Positions 4,769 through 12,731 of a stretch of 13,750 bases of DNA are shown in pieces; position 1 is the stretch's first letter; the number at the start of each line of letters is the position of its first letter. This stretch comes from a virus: the UHGV virus genome UHGV-0180054; one strand, given 5' to 3'. The translations under genes were made by a program, and so were the position numbers. The notes beneath the pieces are model-generated. The model was given only the letters and a program-made list of their open reading frames with translations. It was not told the DNA's origin and made no database searches.

Positions 4769-6541
4769 ATGACCATCACCACAGACACCACTCTTTTACA
4801 CGACCCGCGTCGTCAGGCGGCGCTGCTGTACTGGCAGGGATTTTCCGTGCCGCAGATTGCCGCCATGTTGCAGATGAAACGCCCGACGGTGCAGAGCTGG
4901 AAACAGCGCGACGGCTGGGACAGTGTTGCCCCCATCAGCCGTGTCGAAATGAGCCTGGAAGCGCGGCTGACCCAGCTCATCATCAAACCGCAGAAAACCG
5001 GCGGTGACTTCAAGGAAATTGACCTGCTCGGACGCCAGATTGAACGACTGGCACGGGTAAACCGTTACAGTCAGACCGGCAACGAGGCAGACCTTAATCC
5101 GAACGTCGCTAACCGCAACAAAGGCGGTCGTCGCAAACCGAAAAAGAATTTTTTCAGTGACGAGGCCATCGAAAAGCTGGAGCAGATTTTCTTTGAGCAG
5201 TCTTTCGAATATCAGTTGCACTGGTATCGCGCCGGGCTTGAGCACCGCATCCGCGATATCCTGAAATCCCGCCAGATTGGCGCGACATTTTATTTTTCCC
5301 GCGAGGCGCTGCTGCGCGCCCTGAAAACCGGTCATAACCAGATTTTTCTGTCGGCCAGTAAAACGCAGGCGTATGTGTTCCGCGAATACATCATCGCCTT
5401 TGCCCGGCTGGTTTACGTTGACCTGACCGGTGACCCGATTGTCCTGGGCAATAACGGCGCAAAACTGATTTTTCTCGGCACCAACTCCAACACCGCACAG
5501 AGCCATAACGGTGACCTGTACGTCGACGAGATTTTCTGGATCCCGAATTTTCAGGTACTGCGTAAGGTGGCATCAGGTATGGCCTCACAGAGTCACCTGC
5601 GCTCGACCTATTTCTCCACCCCGTCCACACTGGCGCACGACGCCTACCCGTTCTGGTCGGGTGAACTGTTTAACCGGGGACGCGCCAGCGCCGCCGAACG
5701 TGTGGAAATCGACGTCAGTCATAACGCCCTTGCCGGTGGGCTTCTCTGTGCGGACGGCCAGTGGCGGCAGATTGTCACCATTGAGGACGCCCTGAAAGGC
5801 GGCTGCACGCTGTTCGACATTGAGCAGCTCAAACGTGAAAACAGCGCCGACGATTTTAAAAACCTGTTCATGTGTGAATTTGTTGACGACAAGGCGTCGG
5901 TGTTCCCGTTCGAGGAGCTGCAACGCTGCATGGTCGACACGCTGGAAGAATGGGAAGACTATGCGCCGTTTGCCGCCAATCCGTTCGGCTCCCGCCCGGT
6001 ATGGATTGGTTACGACCCGTCACACCGTGGCGACAGCGCCGGATGCGTGGTGCTGGCACCGCCGGTGGTGGCCGGAGGTAAATTCAGAATACTTGAGCGT
6101 CACCAGTGGAAAGGCATGGACTTTGCCACCCAGGCTGAATCCATCCGCGAACTCACCGAAAAATACAACGTCGAATACATCGGAATTGATGCCACCGGCC
6201 TCGGTGTCGGCGTGTTCCAGCTCGTGCGCTCGTTCTATCCCGCCGCGCGCGATATCCGCTACACGCCGGAAATGAAAACCGCAATGGTGCTCAAGGCAAA
6301 AGACGTTATCCGCCGTGGCTGTCTGGAATATGACGTCAGCGCCACCGACATCACCAGCTCGTTTATGGCTATCCGCAAGACCATGACCAGCAGCGGACGC
6401 AGCGCCACCTATGAGGCCAGTCGCAGCGAGGAAGCCAGCCACGCCGACCTCGCCTGGGCGACCATGCACGCCCTGTTAAATGAGCCACTCACCGCCGGTA
6501 TCAGCACCCCGCTGACATCCACCATTCTGGAGTTTTACTGA
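4769..6541 (+). CDS. P: Terminase large subunit, ATPase (P2 gpP-like), 590 aa
   Basis: ORF 4739..6541 plus begins with TTG in the track; the first ATG at 4769 (MTITTDTTLLHDPRRQAALLYWQG...) follows GAGG and gives 590 aa, the P2 P length. Stop overlaps Q start (TGATG). Confidence 0.9.
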   Translation: MTITTDTTLLHDPRRQAALLYWQGFSVPQIAAMLQMKRPTVQSWKQRDGWDSVAPISRVEMSLEARLTQLIIKPQKTGGDFKEIDLLGRQIERLARVNRYSQTGNEADLNPNVANRNKGGRRKPKKNFFSDEAIEKLEQIFFEQSFEYQLHWYRAGLEHRIRDILKSRQIGATFYFSREALLRALKTGHNQIFLSASKTQAYVFREYIIAFARLVYVDLTGDPIVLGNNGAKLIFLGTNSNTAQSHNGDLYVDEIFWIPNFQVLRKVASGMASQSHLRSTYFSTPSTLAHDAYPFWSGELFNRGRASAAERVEIDVSHNALAGGLLCADGQWRQIVTIEDALKGGCTLFDIEQLKRENSADDFKNLFMCEFVDDKASVFPFEELQRCMVDTLEEWEDYAPFAANPFGSRPVWIGYDPSHRGDSAGCVVLAPPVVAGGKFRILERHQWKGMDFATQAESIRELTEKYNVEYIGIDATGLGVGVFQLVRSFYPAARDIRYTPEMKTAMVLKAKDVIRRGCLEYDVSATDITSSFMAIRKTMTSSGRSATYEASRSEEASHADLAWATMHALLNEPLTAGISTPLTSTILEFY

Positions 6542-7611
6542 TGAGCAAGAAAAAACGGAAAACACCGCAACCTGCGGCAAAAACAATGACCGCCAGCGCC
6601 CCGAAAATGGAGGCGTTCTCCTTTGGTGAGCCGGTGCCGGTCCTCGACCGCCGTGACATTCTGGATTACGTCGAGTGCATCAGTAACGGCAGATGGTATG
6701 AGCCGCCGCTCAGCTTTACCGGTCTGGCAAAAAGCCTGCGTGCTGCCGTGCATCACAGCTCACCGATTTACGTCAAACGCAATATTCTGGCCTCGACATT
6801 TATCCCGCATCCGTGGCTTTCCCAGCAGGATTTCAGCCGCTTTGTGCTGGATTTTCTGGTGTTCGGTAATGCGTTTCTGGAAAAGCGTTACAGCACTACC
6901 GGTAAGGTCATCAGACTGGAAACCTCACCGGCAAAATATACCCGCCGTGGCGTGGAGGAGGATGTTTACTGGTGGGTGCCATCCTTCAACGAGCCGACGC
7001 CTTTCGCGCCCGGCTCCGTGTTTCACCTGCTGGAGCCGGATATTAATCAGGAGCTGTACGGCCTGCCGGAATATCTCAGCGCCCTTAATTCTGCCTGGCT
7101 GAATGAATCAGCCACGCTGTTCCGCCGCAAGTATTACGAAAACGGCGCTCATGCCGGATACATCATGTACGTCACTGATGCCGTGCAGGATCGCAACGAT
7201 ATCGAAATGCTTCGCGAAAACATGGTGAAGTCAAAAGGCCGCAATAACTTTAAAAATCTGTTTCTCTATGCCCCGCAAGGGAAAGCCGACGGCATTAAAA
7301 TTATCCCGCTCAGTGAAGTGGCAACGAAGGACGATTTTTTTAATATCAAAAAAGCCAGCGCCGCTGACCTGCTGGACGCGCACCGCATCCCCTTTCAGTT
7401 GATGGGCGGCAAGCCGGAGAACGTCGGGTCGCTGGGTGATATTGAGAAAGTGGCAAAGGTCTTTGTCCGCAATGAGCTTATCCCGTTACAGGACAGGATC
7501 CGCGAGATAAACGGCTGGCTCGGTCAGGACGCTGAAAAAATAAAATCAGCACCCCCGCCAGCGCGCAGTGCTTTCCCCGCCTCGCCCGCCCGCTTCATGG
7601 GTCGGTTTTAA
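6541..7611 (+). CDS. Q: Portal protein (P2 gpQ-like), 356 aa as read; 3-prime boundary uncertain
   Basis: ORF 6541..7611 plus, ATG start coupled to P stop; sequence recognised as P2 portal Q. The last ~25 residues (SAPPPARSAFPASPARFMGRF) are low-complexity and overlap the cos 19-mer, so the true C-terminus may differ (P2 Q is 344 aa as far as I recall). Confidence 0.8.
   Translation: MSKKKRKTPQPAAKTMTASAPKMEAFSFGEPVPVLDRRDILDYVECISNGRWYEPPLSFTGLAKSLRAAVHHSSPIYVKRNILASTFIPHPWLSQQDFSRFVLDFLVFGNAFLEKRYSTTGKVIRLETSPAKYTRRGVEEDVYWWVPSFNEPTPFAPGSVFHLLEPDINQELYGLPEYLSALNSAWLNESATLFRRKYYENGAHAGYIMYVTDAVQDRNDIEMLRENMVKSKGRNNFKNLFLYAPQGKADGIKIIPLSEVATKDDFFNIKKASAADLLDAHRIPFQLMGGKPENVGSLGDIEKVAKVFVRNELIPLQDRIREINGWLGQDAEKIKSAPPPARSAFPASPARFMGRF
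7568..7586. other. cos cohesive-end sequence (P2/186/P4-type 19-mer)
   Basis: Plus strand reads GTGCTTTCCCCGCCTCGCC, the exact reverse complement of GGCGAGGCGGGGAAAGCAC, which I recall as the 19-nt cohesive end shared by P2, 186 and P4. Late operon (P, Q) and early operon (A side) both point toward it, as on the circular P2 map. Confidence 0.55.
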
Positions 7612-7714
7612 TGCAGGTGCACGAACACACTGGAGACGCACCAGTACTGGCGGTGGTCACGTAGATCCGCCCCTTAAAAGCCATGCAGAATAATGCAACT
7701 ATTGCGGGCGTCGG

Positions 7715-8134
7715 CTAATCATCTCCTAAAGGTGGAATTTTGATGCCACTAATTAGCAGTACTTTCCGATATGCCTCAAAAATAATGTTGTGTGTTTTTT
7801 GTAAATCATCGAGCATTTTTTGCCGTCCTGCTGGGGTATCTTTGGCAAAATTATGAGCGCGAAAAAAATCATGTGCCAAGTAGTTTCTGGCTTTAAGAGC
7901 ATCTGACACATACTCCAGTGTATCAGCATCCTCCACCATCCTAGATTTCAGTGCGTAATTCAATTTACCCAGCGTGTATTTATCCATTTCTAAAAACTGT
8001 TTTTTCAGCGACTGTATATCTTTCCCCTGACTCATATCATACTCAGTGATAACATTTATCAACTCAGTCTCCAGTAATTGAGCTGCTTCCGAAGCATAAC
8101 CAAATTTCCAATAAACCGTATCAAGCGTCACCAT
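7715..8134 (-). CDS. Hypothetical 139-aa protein, hotspot cargo (candidate partner/immunity/regulator of the upstream HNH protein)
   Basis: ORF 7715..8134 minus, ATG at 8134-8132, stop TAG at 7717-7715; AT-rich codon usage unlike the phage core; mildly acidic (about 21 D/E vs 18 K/R), no motif I recognise; 91 bp downstream of the 443-aa gene on the same strand. Confidence 0.6.
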   Translation of the reverse strand: MVTLDTVYWKFGYASEAAQLLETELINVITEYDMSQGKDIQSLKKQFLEMDKYTLGKLNYALKSRMVEDADTLEYVSDALKARNYLAHDFFRAHNFAKDTPAGRQKMLDDLQKTHNIIFEAYRKVLLISGIKIPPLGDD

Positions 8135-8225
8135 ATAATCTATTCCCCATATAATAAATCACACCCCAAATTAAATCATAATACATAATTAAATCTAACG
8201 CCTCGCTGCACCAGAAGAAGTCATG

Positions 8226-9557
8226 TTAACGCTTATCATGGAACTTTTTCCATTTTGTCATCAACTTTCCAGCATCAAGTTCTACATGATGCGGTTGTAG
8301 AGTTTTTCCCTCAAACATAGTTTTGTGGATACAATTAATAGAGAAATGAACCGTTAAGTCTTCTGGATTAATCCCCATTAATCCTTTATCAAACATTCGG
8401 TGTAAACTTACTTCAAGTAACAGGCCATTAGATGTGTTATTATTTGCCGATTCTGTTATTGCTTCAATATGTGCGGCTTCCAATATCCCCTCTGGCAATG
8501 GATAGCCAGTAATAGCACATCTGCCATTGAAGTTATCCCAAACACGGCGTTTGAAATCAGCTTGATCTCCAGCATGACGGACTTTGTGAGTAACCTCGAC
8601 TGTTCGTCCTGTAGCACAGGTATCGTTTGCGGCCTTGAAAGGATTAGTTAGACTTTCATTAATGGCTATATCCGTTCCATCCATGATAAGAGATATTTCA
8701 TTATTGGGTTCGTGTGATGTTAATGGACTTATGTACTGATTGCTTAAAAAAGTCATACTAGATTCTTCATCAGTCGCGAGTTTCCACGCTTCTGATTGTG
8801 TCATTGTTAGCAATGCCGTTTGATAAACTTGCTTATTAAAATAACGTTTATCTTTCTTGTCACTCCCCATATTAATAGTACTAGATTTAATCGGAAGTGT
8901 TTTATCACCAATTAGTAGATCACGTATTTCTACAGTCTCTTCTAAGGTATCAATAGGAGCTACTATAGGGTTAGTAAACGGGTTATCTACATGATCTACG
9001 TGGTTGTGTCGTAAATGCCACTCTATAGCACTATCTTTTATATGTATCTCGCAGACAGGGCATACAATAAGCCCCATAGATGTTACAGGTAGCTTTTTGC
9101 CACCGATTAAGCGTAATGTATTTGCATTCTGGTTATGTACTTTCTTTTGGTTCTGTGTCAGTACACTACGCTTAGCCTCTAAACGGGTCGGAATCTTAGC
9201 AAGATTAAGCGATTTACGGCTCTCTTGTCTCTCAAGATCATAGATCCGAATCCCTGCTTCAGTTTTGATTTTTGTCCACATAGAGATAGAACTAAGGAAT
9301 TTATGTCCATGTACTTTTTCATAATCAGCATAAACTTGCAAAGTAGCAGTGGAACTATCTAATCCTTTTTTACGGAGTGCTGTATATTGCTGAAAAAGAT
9401 TAATAGCATGAGCTGTAATAGAGCGCCTATTCTCTATAATTTGCGCTTTTTTTGCTGCTTGTTCTGCTTGCAATGCTTTTTGTTCAGGGGTAAGCGACTT
9501 CTTTTTGGTTTTCTTGGTTCTTTTCTTACTCAAAATTTTCTTACTGTTATTGTTCAT
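8226..9557 (-). CDS. HNH (HNH_2-type) nuclease-domain protein with lysine-rich N-terminus and central Cys/His cluster, 443 aa, hotspot cargo
   Basis: ORF 8226..9557 minus, ATG start with AAAGG upstream. C-terminal residues ~341-410 read GRCAITGYPLPEGILEAAHIEAITESANNNTSNGLLLEVSLHRMFDKGLMGINPEDLTVHFSINCI, matching the C-x-x-TG ... AHI ... NGL ... H-x-x-FD signature of HNH_2 (PF13391-like) endonucleases. Residues 5-40 are a K-rich basic tract; residues 166-189 CPVCEIHIKDSAIEWHLRHNHVDH resemble a zinc-binding motif. About 33-38% GC. Confidence 0.75.
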   Translation of the reverse strand: MNNNSKKILSKKRTKKTKKKSLTPEQKALQAEQAAKKAQIIENRRSITAHAINLFQQYTALRKKGLDSSTATLQVYADYEKVHGHKFLSSISMWTKIKTEAGIRIYDLERQESRKSLNLAKIPTRLEAKRSVLTQNQKKVHNQNANTLRLIGGKKLPVTSMGLIVCPVCEIHIKDSAIEWHLRHNHVDHVDNPFTNPIVAPIDTLEETVEIRDLLIGDKTLPIKSSTINMGSDKKDKRYFNKQVYQTALLTMTQSEAWKLATDEESSMTFLSNQYISPLTSHEPNNEISLIMDGTDIAINESLTNPFKAANDTCATGRTVEVTHKVRHAGDQADFKRRVWDNFNGRCAITGYPLPEGILEAAHIEAITESANNNTSNGLLLEVSLHRMFDKGLMGINPEDLTVHFSINCIHKTMFEGKTLQPHHVELDAGKLMTKWKKFHDKR

Positions 9558-9666
9558 TTTGCAAGCCTTTAATCTAATTCATGGAAAGGGGCATTCACTT
9601 GCCCTGTATCCAGTAAACTGACATAACACGATATAAGCAAGCTCCGTAATTCTTTCATGTTAATCA
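9558..9666 (-). promoter_or_regulatory. Intergenic region between A stop and the 443-aa cargo gene; candidate terminator/promoter for the cargo cassette
   Basis: 109-bp gap; weak hairpin (stem around 9588-9592 / 9601-9605) followed on the minus strand by TTTCC; weak sigma70-like hexamers (TTGCTT-17nt-TTTACT on the minus strand). Assignment is speculative. Confidence 0.25.
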
Positions 9667-11943
9667 TCAATGGTCCATTGTGAATCCCGCCCCCTCATAA
9701 GCGACCGGATACGTGAACTTTTTCCCGTCATAATTTACGGTTGCCCCACGCGCCAGCGCCTCAAGCTCCCATCGCTGCGGCCTGATACCGTTCTGAGCAA
9801 GGTCAACGCGGATACGGGTAATTTGCATTCGTTCCGACCGGGTCATTCTGGCCGATGGCGCTATTTCATGCGGTTTTAACGGGCTTCCGTTTCTTTGCTG
9901 ACGATTTGGTGTTCTCATGTCGTGTTTTAATGCGCCCCTGAGCGCCCTCACGACCTCCGGGTCATTCCATTCGATAACACCGTCATCTACCAGATTAAGC
10001 ACTGCTGCGGCGTGTTCAGAAGGTGTGGGAGCCGGTAACGAAGTATCACCACCGGTGAGCTTTCCACAGTTATTGACAGGACTCCGAGGCGCGGCGATGC
10101 CGCTTTTTAAAGTCAAAGGCTCAACGACCGGAACTTTCGGCACAATGCGCCAGTCCGTCGTTCTGGTGATATGAATATGACGCGCGCCGAGATGCGGCGC
10201 GTAAATGCCGACCACTCTCTCGACTTCTTCCTCGTACTCGTTAACGTCATCCGACGGGCTACGGGCGACCCTGACAGTCTGACAATCGCGCGGGACATTT
10301 GCCCCGCCCTGCGCGCTGATATACAACGCAAAATCACCACTGTCTGCAGCGGCGCGTGCAGCCTCGACGCGCTCGTCAAACTCATCAGCAATGCTGACGC
10401 CGCGAGGCAATTTGCGTAGTTCACGGTAAGCCCCCATTGTCGGCAGACCAACCGTTTTAAATTGCGGGATGCGCCACGTTGACGCCCATGCGGTAACAGC
10501 CGCGGCAGTATCTTTCAGCGGTCTGCCGGTATCATTATCGAGCTGACCATCCAGTGCATAGCCGTCGATATTTTTTGAGATGTATTTCGCGATATACCCC
10601 GCAGCACCGCCCCGGTTAAGATGTTTTGCCTGAAAACGGTTTCGCGCGGCTCCTCTTTCGTCTCCATCCTCTTTGAGCGCGTAGCGACGCATGATTTCAA
10701 TAATCTGGTTACGCTGGCGTGGATTACAAAAAAGCATCATATGCCAGTGCGGCGTTCCGTCGTGGTGTGGCTCGACGACACGCAAACCGTAGACCTGTAA
10801 ATCATTATCCTTGAATGCCGTGCGCATCAGGCTCCAGATACGGCAGAGATAACGCTGCGCATCCTTTGGATTAAATGCCTCATCGTTCCAGCCGTGATTA
10901 AGCTGCACGGTTTTACTTTCGCCTTTTCCGACCTGACGTGTCGGGTGATACTTTGACGGCGCGGTCAGCGTGATAAACATCCCCACGTCACCCTCTGCAG
11001 CGGCGTAACGCTCAATACCGGCAATGGTGTTCATCAGCTCCATCCGGCGAATTTCAGGATTAGAAATACTGCCCATCACCTTACTGATAAGGTCGATGCG
11101 CTCGCCGGTTTCCCTGTTCTCAAGGTCACACGATTTAAGAAACTCCAGATTTGCCTGGCGGCGCGCACGCACATCACGAATGGCATGTTTACTGGCATAA
11201 GGAGAACGGTCTTTATTGACCTCCCCGACAGCAATCAGTAACGCCTCATGCCAGCGCATACGCTGGCCTTTAAGCTGATGAGTCCACCACTCATCGTTAA
11301 ACAGGCGGGCAATGGCAGAATATGCCTGCCTCGTGGTCATCTGTCCTTTACGGTATTTTTTCCAGTAGAGAGGGGAAATATTGAAAGCACGTGCAGCGCC
11401 AGCAACATGACCATAGAGGTGAGCCTGCGCCTCATCCGTAAACAGCGATTCTTTCTCGCCATGCGCATCCACCCAGGCATCGCAGAGTTCCTCATACATC
11501 ATGAAAAGCTGTGATGAGATACGGGCGGCAAACTTTTTCAGCTCCTTGTCATTCATCCCCGGCAGGCGCGCATAATGGTCACGCTCTGCCAGAAACAGCA
11601 ACGACGCGTCGGTGTTCATTTCATGGCGCTGATTCACGCGCTCAATGCGCGGCCATAAACGACGCTGAAAAGTGGATGTGAGGAAATAAAACCCGTGCAC
11701 CGGGCTTTTATTGCGCCGGATGTAGTCATAGCGTGAAGTAAACAGCGAGCGCAAAAAGTAAGGCAGGCGGTTAATCGTGGATAAAACACCTTGCACCTGA
11801 CGCATCTCGTCACGTGTAAGGGGTCTTTCGCGCCCGACGGCCTCGCGTGGCGCGTTCCATGCATAAGCACCGGTAAACGTCTTACCGGTGCCTGCGGCAA
11901 ATGCTGACGGAGGGACAAAATGCCCGGAGGCTTTAACGGCCAT
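9667..11943 (-). CDS. A: Replication initiation protein, rolling-circle endonuclease (P2 gpA-like), ~758 aa
   Basis: ORF 9667..11985 minus begins with TTG in the track; first ATG at 11943 (MAVKASGHFVPPSAFAAGTGK...) matches the P2 A N-terminus as I recall it. Contains HUH-type motif (PHWHMMLF) and paired-tyrosine motif (AAGYIAKYISK) typical of rolling-circle initiators. Last gene of the early operon. Confidence 0.9.
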   Translation of the reverse strand: MAVKASGHFVPPSAFAAGTGKTFTGAYAWNAPREAVGRERPLTRDEMRQVQGVLSTINRLPYFLRSLFTSRYDYIRRNKSPVHGFYFLTSTFQRRLWPRIERVNQRHEMNTDASLLFLAERDHYARLPGMNDKELKKFAARISSQLFMMYEELCDAWVDAHGEKESLFTDEAQAHLYGHVAGAARAFNISPLYWKKYRKGQMTTRQAYSAIARLFNDEWWTHQLKGQRMRWHEALLIAVGEVNKDRSPYASKHAIRDVRARRQANLEFLKSCDLENRETGERIDLISKVMGSISNPEIRRMELMNTIAGIERYAAAEGDVGMFITLTAPSKYHPTRQVGKGESKTVQLNHGWNDEAFNPKDAQRYLCRIWSLMRTAFKDNDLQVYGLRVVEPHHDGTPHWHMMLFCNPRQRNQIIEIMRRYALKEDGDERGAARNRFQAKHLNRGGAAGYIAKYISKNIDGYALDGQLDNDTGRPLKDTAAAVTAWASTWRIPQFKTVGLPTMGAYRELRKLPRGVSIADEFDERVEAARAAADSGDFALYISAQGGANVPRDCQTVRVARSPSDDVNEYEEEVERVVGIYAPHLGARHIHITRTTDWRIVPKVPVVEPLTLKSGIAAPRSPVNNCGKLTGGDTSLPAPTPSEHAAAVLNLVDDGVIEWNDPEVVRALRGALKHDMRTPNRQQRNGSPLKPHEIAPSARMTRSERMQITRIRVDLAQNGIRPQRWELEALARGATVNYDGKKFTYPVAYEGAGFTMDH

Positions 11944-12429: not shown

Positions 12430-12731
12430 TACCAGCTCCTTTTGTCGTTCAGCTTCTTAAATTCATCAGCGCAATAGCTGGCGATTTCTGTCGTTAATTT
12501 TGTCAGTTCATCCACGGATGAAATTTGCTTATGAAATACAGCGCGTTTAACAAGTAAATTGACCACATCAGACAGGAGATTTAATTCGTTCTGATAAATC
12601 GCGAAAACAGATTCAGTTATTTCGCGTTTTTCTTTATCAAGACCAAGTTGAATAAGAGACAAATCGCCATTTTTCATAACGGCGATTTTTAAGGCATTGT
12701 TCAGTAATACAACTGAATGAGAACAGGACAT
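12429..12731 (-). CDS. Small early-operon protein (P2 orf81 position), 100 aa
   Basis: Track ORF 12429..12734 starts with TTG; first ATG at 12731-12729 with GGAGG upstream; start overlaps upstream stop (TGATG); function unknown. Confidence 0.6.
   Translation of the reverse strand: MSCSHSVVLLNNALKIAVMKNGDLSLIQLGLDKEKREITESVFAIYQNELNLLSDVVNLLVKRAVFHKQISSVDELTKLTTEIASYCADEFKKLNDKRSW

Follow-up and report, generated by a model that had tools for sequence, protein, structure and literature searches.

The window analysed here, a stretch of 13,750 nucleotides from the virus genome UHGV-0180054, is a P2-like prophage in which two minus-strand ORFs are separated by a gap of 91 bp (8135-8225; plus-strand sequence ATAATCTATTCCCCATATAATAAATCACACCCCAAATTAAATCATAATACATAATTAAATCTAACGCCTCGCTGCACCAGAAGAAGTCATG). 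The gap is bounded by the start of a 139-aa ORF (7715-8134) and by the stop of a 443-aa ORF (8226-9557), and transcription runs from the 443-aa gene (9557..8226) across the gap into the 139-aa gene (8134..7715). What this short non-coding stretch does, and whether it ties the two genes into one system, is the question raised by the locus. A preliminary description had suggested that it contains an internal promoter and/or repeated operator half-sites, by which the small gene could be expressed independently of, or in excess over, the nuclease gene, as expected for an immunity gene. The reading favoured here, with a probability of about 0.6, is that the gap is the seam of two single-gene morons together with the portable leader, and probable promoter, of the small gene, located at the gpA-portal hotspot of P2-like phages.

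Composition and direct repeats of the gap

Re-reading of the sequence confirmed the coordinates of the gap and the presence of the 9-mer AATTAAATC, which occurs in exact form at 8169-8177 and 8187-8195, 18 bp apart from start to start. The tandem CATAAT needed correction: two copies are present and the second lies at 8184-8189 as described, but the first is located at 8177-8182 and not at 8178-8183, with a period of 7 nt instead of a 6-nt tandem. As the second CATAAT overlaps the second 9-mer, it is not an independent observation. The context was also called very AT-rich; the gap is AT-rich but not extreme, with 67% A+T where the window has 48% and the cassette 61.5%.

Upon shuffling of the gap, a direct repeat of at least 9 nt was obtained in 4.6% of the mononucleotide and 6.1% of the dinucleotide shuffles, and 32 of the 1366 91-nt windows taken from the whole sequence contain one. 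The 9-mer repeat is real but only marginally unusual, even without correcting for how many gaps were inspected. AATTAAATC occurs a third time in exact form on the minus strand at 12578-12586, inside a DUF5405-like early gene. Exact and one-mismatch matches to the 9-mer amount to seven in the window for about 3.4 expected, a number reached by 13 of 200 shuffles, and this excess is probably due to chance.

A longer direct repeat, which had escaped the first reading, was detected with a repeat finder on the plus strand (TCACCATATAAT at 8128-8139 and TCCCCATATAAT at 8144-8155; 11/12 identical, spacing 16). It spans 8128..8155, covers the start codon and the Shine-Dalgarno region of the small gene, and reads ATTATATGGTGA and ATTATATGGGGA on the coding strand. 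In ST131 and Salmonella the two copies match at 10/12 positions (GTTATCTGGAGA and GTTATATGGTGA on the coding strand). This 12-mer repeat resembles the trace of an old duplication of 16 nt in the start region.

Two cargo modules in the gpA-portal hotspot

In E. coli loci 99% identical to the window, the annotated gene order is terminase ATPase, portal, hypothetical protein (139 aa), HNH protein and replication endonuclease. The gap thereby sits in the gpA-portal (gpA-gpQ) cargo hotspot, between gpA on one side and the portal gene and cos on the other. This hotspot of P2-like phages has been described previously (Rousset et al., 2022, PMC9122126, section 10), and again in a 2026 NAR study (PMC13586616). 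In the supplement of the former, WP_023304084 and WP_023281582 are listed as the arrangement 'HNH_2 + hypothetical'; the hotspot systems of that study were cloned 'with their native promoters', and neither of the two cassette genes was assayed or named as a defence system (PMC9122126). A literature search by accession or PHROG number retrieved no paper on the two genes. PADLOC assigned no system to them, returning only generic HNH matches and a sub-threshold match to PD-Lambda-3_B. The two genes share with the known cargo modules of the P2 hotspot their position and their organisation as short single- or few-gene cassettes exchanged by recombination. They differ in that the listed arrangement corresponds here to two separable modules and not to one system.

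The first module carries the 443-aa gene (8226..9557, minus strand), whose product belongs to phrog_20585 (E 6e-181), a PHROG family of unknown function, and is annotated in RefSeq (WP_023304084) as an HNH endonuclease signature motif protein. Its Pfam HNH_2 domain is located in the C-terminal part, at residues 347-397 (E 7e-11). Homologues with 65% identity are encoded in Citrobacter and Pectobacterium islands, where the small gene is not found alongside. The closest non-prophage homologues, of 502 aa and 65% identity, are those of Citrobacter islands (L095-L098), in which the neighbours are a resolvase and a Gabija-like pair (OLD-type TOPRIM ATPase and UvrD helicase). These homologues are in a defence-island context.

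Comparison with relatives allowed the two modules to be delimited. The HNH_2 nuclease module extends over 9653..8212 (minus strand) and includes a 5' flank (9558..9653), homology to other P2-like prophages stopping at 9654, and a 14-nt 3' tail (8212..8225) which the alignments identify as the recombination junction. A promoter-like candidate, TTCACA-16-TAACAT, is found near the 5' flank at 9684..9657 on the minus strand. The small-gene module, consisting of a 77-nt leader and the 139-aa gene, covers 8211..7716 (minus strand). Upstream of about 8211 no similarity to non-HNH relatives was found in three alignments (A1, A3 and A4), and similarity to the ST131 relatives disappears exactly upstream of GTGCAGCGAGG. 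A blastn comparison with one ST131 locus (L001) returned matches only at 9900..9654 and 8211..7528, which places the break points at 8211 and 9654.

A megablast search of complete E. coli genomes retrieved the whole cassette in 12 genomes and positions 7716-8211 only in 18 others, at 82.6% identity. These 18 genomes, from ST131 and others, do not carry the HNH gene; upstream of the leader they have genes for a DUF2971 protein and two hypothetical proteins. Loci with unrelated neighbours share the block 8211..7716, which moves as a unit with its own non-coding flank. Close homologues of the small protein (63-83% identity) occur at the same site in P2-like prophages of other genera. In Salmonella the gene is preceded by genes for DinI, a 243-aa and a 69-aa protein, in Klebsiella aerogenes by DUF7415, and in phage PSP3 by tumA, tumB (DinI) and orf37. 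In Kosakonia it stands between DinI upstream and GmrSD downstream. The Citrobacter loci have 114-aa and 79-aa genes upstream and either 273-aa and 239-aa genes or none downstream, and in sequences from uncultured sources a 528-aa gene follows, one set also having the 114-aa and 79-aa genes upstream. The Lelliottia copy has no neighbouring cargo gene and lies behind a hairpin, 280 nt past gpA. The small gene is thus found behind at least six different sets of upstream neighbours, and alone in one prophage. At 46 loci encoding more distant homologues (35-45% identity, many phyla), no family of neighbouring genes is shared by more than three related genomes.

By its position and its mobility, the small gene with its leader is an autonomous cargo module (moron) of the P2 gpA-gpQ hotspot. 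The idea that it serves as an immunity gene of the nuclease is contradicted by the independent distribution of the two genes: co-occurrence is the defining test of a nuclease/immunity pair, and these genes do not consistently occur together across genomes.

A diverged copy of the whole cassette was found in L105 (IMGVR_UViG_2703718839_000009), which is 92.8% identical to the window overall, with 94.8% in the spacer and 86.2% (nucleotide) or 84% (protein) in the small gene. This pattern suggests mosaicism inside the small gene.

The product of the small gene (7715..8134, minus strand), the second module, belongs to phrog_12893 (E 3e-85), also a family of unknown function, and is a member of the PSP3 orf38 family, with 71% identity to gp38 of Salmonella phage PSP3. 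As in the window, no gene separates orf38 of PSP3 from the right cos end. An AlphaFold model of the 139-aa protein predicted an acidic five-helix bundle (pLDDT 89.5). Nothing significant was obtained for the protein from Pfam, NCBIfam and PADLOC, nor any match from a profile search of PDB sequences or from Foldseek against PDB and BFVD. A profile search collected about 1,900 orf38-family clusters at 50% identity; among the best 150 matches listed, nearly all are about 100-200 aa long and are covered by the profile almost end to end.

Small RNases of the HEPN superfamily, for example HepT-like toxins, are a close known group. Like them, the family has an invariant R-x4-H motif (R83-x4-H88, in 18 family sequences) in an all-alpha bundle of about 140 aa, and individual members gave sub-threshold matches to HEPN_RiboL-PSP, HEPN_Apea and HepT-like. 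On the other side, no profile match of the 139-aa family itself reached a Pfam threshold, and Foldseek gave no match for the model. HEPN-like identity is a lead for the small protein and not a finding. One 279-aa homologue (P0156) combines an orf38-family domain (1-143) with a HepT-like HEPN RNase domain (169-263) that passes the Pfam threshold, which may be either a genuine fusion or two genes called as one. With a separate HepT-like domain in P0156, the orf38 family could equally be a HEPN partner and not a HEPN domain itself.

The 77-nt leader and its candidate promoter

The leader (8211-8135, minus strand) accompanies the small gene in every P2-like prophage examined, whichever gene lies upstream. 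In order to compare it, 14 distinct upstream sequences were aligned, 10 of them non-HNH and 4 HNH-linked. With 80-82% identity to its counterparts in ST131 and Salmonella, the leader is conserved at least as well as the coding sequence (75-83%). Three features are conserved: the block GCGAGGCG-TTAGAY, the pentamer ATTAT and the Shine-Dalgarno sequence.

The most conserved of them, GCGAGGCG-TTAGATT at 8192..8206 (minus strand), is present in all 14 sequences, single substitutions aside. Within it TTAGA never varies and is followed by T in the HNH-linked variants (GCGAGGCG-TTAGAT(T)) and by C in the other sequences (GCGAGGCG-TTAGAC(T)). Its TAGAYT is a candidate -35, overlapped by one copy of the 9-mer (8187..8195, GATTTAATT on the coding strand). 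ATTAT is found in 13 of the 14 sequences, in the window as part of TATTAT (8178..8183, minus strand). The second 9-mer (8169..8177, minus strand) overlaps a candidate extended -10, TG-A-TTTAAT (8178..8170), 16 nt past TAGATT, where the relatives read TGGCTTAAT. The Shine-Dalgarno sequence GGGGA (8144..8148, minus strand), read directly from the sequence, stands 9 nt before the ATG and is replaced by GGAGA or GGGTGG in the relatives.

A scan of the gap for sigma-70 sites with at least 9 of 12 consensus matches was negative. In the majority class of relatives, however, TAGACT and CATTAT are exactly 17 nt apart in all six distinct sequences while the spacer sequence varies, which is the signature expected of a real promoter; ATTAT is there part of the -10. 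The window forms a subclade with ST131 and Salmonella/PSP3 in which the spacer is 9 nt shorter, so that ATTAT is only 8 nt from TAGAYT (TAGATT in the window), and in this subclade an alternative -10 is correctly placed (TAGAYT-16-TGnYTTAAT). The candidate promoter of the window consists of TAGATT (8197..8192) and TGATTTAAT (8178..8170). The best conserved candidate, TAGATT-16-(TG)a-TTTAAT, has 3+5 of 12 consensus matches plus the TG; its TAGATT-16-TTTAAT scored 4.88 bits in an own PWM scan, the 99.88th percentile of window positions, which taken alone is not significant, as about one such score is expected by chance per region of this size.

Of the proposed internal promoter, what stands is its plausibility, given the autonomous module and the conserved boxes at fixed spacing; a strong sigma-70 match was not found. 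It is plausible that the leader carries the small gene's own sigma-70 promoter, on a comparative basis and not by motif score. The conserved GCGAGGCG block is left unexplained by a simple promoter model.

Higher-scoring combinations in the window are specific to it and were rejected. ATGATT-17-TATTAT (8179..8151), the top PWM match of the coding strand, needs a window-specific A at 8155 and would start transcription inside the Shine-Dalgarno sequence. An antisense promoter was also considered: the plus strand has perfect TATAAT hexamers at 8134-8139 and 8150-8155 and the region's highest PWM score (8.6 bits), and GTCACC-17-TATAAT on this strand exceeds the proposed promoter. It is not conserved: in the closest relatives (L102-L105) the second TATAAT is replaced by TATAAC, and neither hexamer is intact in ST131 or Salmonella. 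The combination TTGAAC-19-TAGACT reaches 8.6 bits in the relatives. The window does not have its -35, and a 19-nt spacer of conserved sequence is atypical; such a promoter is a possibility in the relatives only. A putative upstream leader peptide of 21 codons (ATG at 8186) was also discarded as not conserved: the frame, open in ST131 from a GTG, is stopped after 6 codons in Salmonella/PSP3.

All ten non-HNH upstream sequences contain a GC hairpin, CCGCCAGCGCTGAAA-CTYGC-TTTCAGCGCTGGCGG, followed by GGTTGAACAA. It has 17 predicted pairs with compensatory changes at 8 of them, and is always located about 90-130 nt upstream of the small gene, for instance at 3870-3915 in L075 and 3462-3500 in L115, and likewise in L087, L083, L079 and L092. 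No canonical U-tract is present on the gene strand, CGTTT(T/G)C following on the opposite strand, and a simple terminator scan did not call the hairpin a terminator. These two results weaken the argument that the leader follows a terminator and must hold a promoter. The hairpin may act as an insulator, a terminator or a recombination site. The window has neither the GC hairpin nor the TTGAACA box; the 3' end of the HNH gene stands in their place. The region upstream of PSP3 orf38 resembles the window's subclade in its GCGAGGCGTTAGACT block, ATTAT and TGGCTTAAT, but has kept the hairpin of the other relatives.

At the junction itself, a minimum-free-energy fold revealed a weak hairpin, a possible leaky terminator (8194..8215, minus strand). 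Its 8 pairs include 3 G-C and 3 G-U and are followed by the tail TTTAATTATG; it is not conserved in the relatives, and the region has a z-score of only -1.47. It is the only terminator candidate after the HNH gene, the 14-nt 3' tail leaving no room for a terminator of its own. Because the module ends 14 nt past the stop codon without a convincing terminator, read-through from the HNH gene into the small gene is likely. No structured RNA was recognised in the gap (MFE -26.2 kcal/mol, with 17 of 200 shuffles folding at least as well), and no Rfam match at E <=1 was obtained in and around it. The consensus fold of the relatives supports only the upstream hairpin that the window does not have.

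In the favoured reading, recombination in the gpA-portal hotspot would have brought the two single-gene cargo modules together, with 8225-8212, the 14 nt past the HNH stop, derived from the HNH module and 8211-8135 being the 77-nt leader of the small gene. The promoter of most relatives would be TAGACT-17 nt-CATTAT. In the window's subclade, the shortening of the spacer by 9 nt would have moved the usable -10 to TG-n-YTTAAT, 16 nt past TAGAYT, which predicts that transcription starts at about 8164-8162, with a 5' UTR of some 30 nt. The two 9-mers, which overlap the -35 and -10 boxes, would be a lineage-specific by-product of an AT-rich promoter and not operator half-sites. Upstream of the leader, the HNH gene appears to have replaced the GC hairpin and TTGAACA of the relatives, and with these gone the small gene is probably also reached by HNH read-through transcripts, perhaps damped by the weak junction hairpin.

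Alternative readings and consequences for the locus

The proposal of the preliminary description was that the 9-mers are operator half-sites at an internal promoter, bound for instance by the 139-aa protein, with the immunity gene expressed separately or in excess. Part of its appeal is geometrical. In P2, the operator of the early promoter Pe, on which the C repressor acts, consists of two direct repeats on both sides of the Pe -10. A close relative has GTTTAGAT twice in its C-cox region, 22 bp apart. The gap likewise has direct repeats of 8-9 bp flanking a -10-like hexamer, TATTAT, and its GTTAGAT resembles the P2 half-site GTTTAGAT. There are several differences: the spacing is 22 bp in P2 but 18 bp in the gap, the repeated word of the gap is GATTTAATT and not TTAGAT, of which there is a single copy, and the gap repeat is not conserved in relatives. 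The resemblance is one of geometry only. A C-repressor operator of P2 in the gap was rejected, as only one GTTAGAT is present and the relatives have TTAGAC under other immunity types. No LexA box was found in the gap either (no CTG-N10-CAG).

The history of the repeat gives arguments on both sides. None of the four HNH-linked variants, one of them 7% diverged, has a change in either 9-mer, and position 3 appears concerted between lineages, being T in both copies of the window and C in both copies of the sisters. From these two observations, a lineage-specific function of the 9-mer repeat would remain conceivable. Outside the HNH-linked lineage the exact repeat is absent: sister lineages match the 9-mer at 7/9 and 6/9, the copies reading GACTTATTT and GGCTTAATC in ST131, Salmonella and PSP3; in ST131 and Salmonella they match each other at only 6/9, and the majority class has no counterpart. 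With a shuffle p of about 0.05-0.06 the repeat is not clearly above chance, and its 18-bp spacing is not a whole number of helical turns. The search for a cognate DNA-binding protein, which covered the 139-aa protein, found no DNA-binding domain or HTH (Pfam, NCBIfam, model and Foldseek) in the acidic five-helix bundle. As the independent distribution of the two genes also speaks against any nuclease/immunity coupling, the half-site proposal is not supported and is considered improbable.

A different objection to the favoured reading is that the gap holds no promoter at all. The small gene would then be expressed here solely as second cistron of the HNH mRNA, and the 77 nt would be a translation-initiation leader and recombination scar, conserved because crossovers in the hotspot occur within it. 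The negative consensus scan and the unremarkable PWM scores agree with this, as do the missing insulating hairpin and TTGAACA box, the mere 14 nt between the HNH stop codon and the conserved leader, and a break point that falls exactly on the border of the conserved block, as a crossover site would. It fits poorly with the Lelliottia gene, which stands alone behind its hairpin, and with the unrelated genes found upstream in seven other contexts. Dependence on read-through would also not preserve a pair of boxes at a fixed 17-nt spacing around a variable spacer. This explanation is rather unlikely, yet deserves some weight. Less is given to the view that the GCGAGGCG-TTAGAY block is the functional core, as a regulator binding site or RNA element, and the AT-rich repeats incidental. 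No other non-coding stretch is as well conserved across contexts and immunity types (Cox-type and 186 CP76-type prophages), such conservation is unusual for a promoter spacer or for the sequence preceding a -35, and GTTAGAT in the window recalls one P2 C half-site. Against it, the block exists in a single copy, its identity under different immunity systems shows that it is not tied to one repressor, no Rfam match was obtained, and conserved RNA structure there is limited to a 3-pair stem.

The most far-reaching version is a long shot: the orf38 family would be an unrecognised single-gene HEPN-like (counter-)defence factor that anchors the hotspot, the hairpin, the GCGAGGCGTTAGAY block and the promoter would form a regulated switch, and the HNH-linked 9-mers flanking TATTAT would be a new operator coupling expression to the nuclease or to infection.

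The spacer behaves as an ordinary moron upstream leader in an already described prophage hotspot. For practical work, 'HNH_2 + hypothetical' should be neither interpreted nor cloned as a single nuclease/immunity system, since it consists of two independent cargo genes with their own flanks, and the two genes are best assayed separately in anti-phage assays. Clones of the small gene should keep at least 77 nt of upstream sequence; the hairpin-containing 140 nt or so of PSP3-type loci would be a better choice. The conserved leader block also appears to mark a recurrent recombination boundary in the hotspot. What novelty is left at this locus resides in the uncharacterised orf38 family and in the conserved unit of hairpin, block and promoter, not in the repeats.

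A separate observation concerns the portal ORF (6541-7611) on the other side of the small gene. At 7528|7529 the window is missing a segment of 177 bp that every relative examined contains. The missing segment holds the normal 3' end of the portal gene, its stop codon and a GC hairpin (AAAAAAGCCGCCCGCAGGCGGCG). Because of this absence, the portal ORF runs through the cos region to 7611 and encodes 356 aa, compared to 336-348 aa in the relatives. The sequence GGCGAGGCGGGGAAAGCAC at about 7569-7587 (minus strand) would correspond to the 19-nt cohesive-end sequence of P2, and falls inside the extended ORF. The deletion is flanked by short microhomology (GCGTC|TGAG ... CCTC|CTGA), and could reflect a defective prophage or an assembly artefact.
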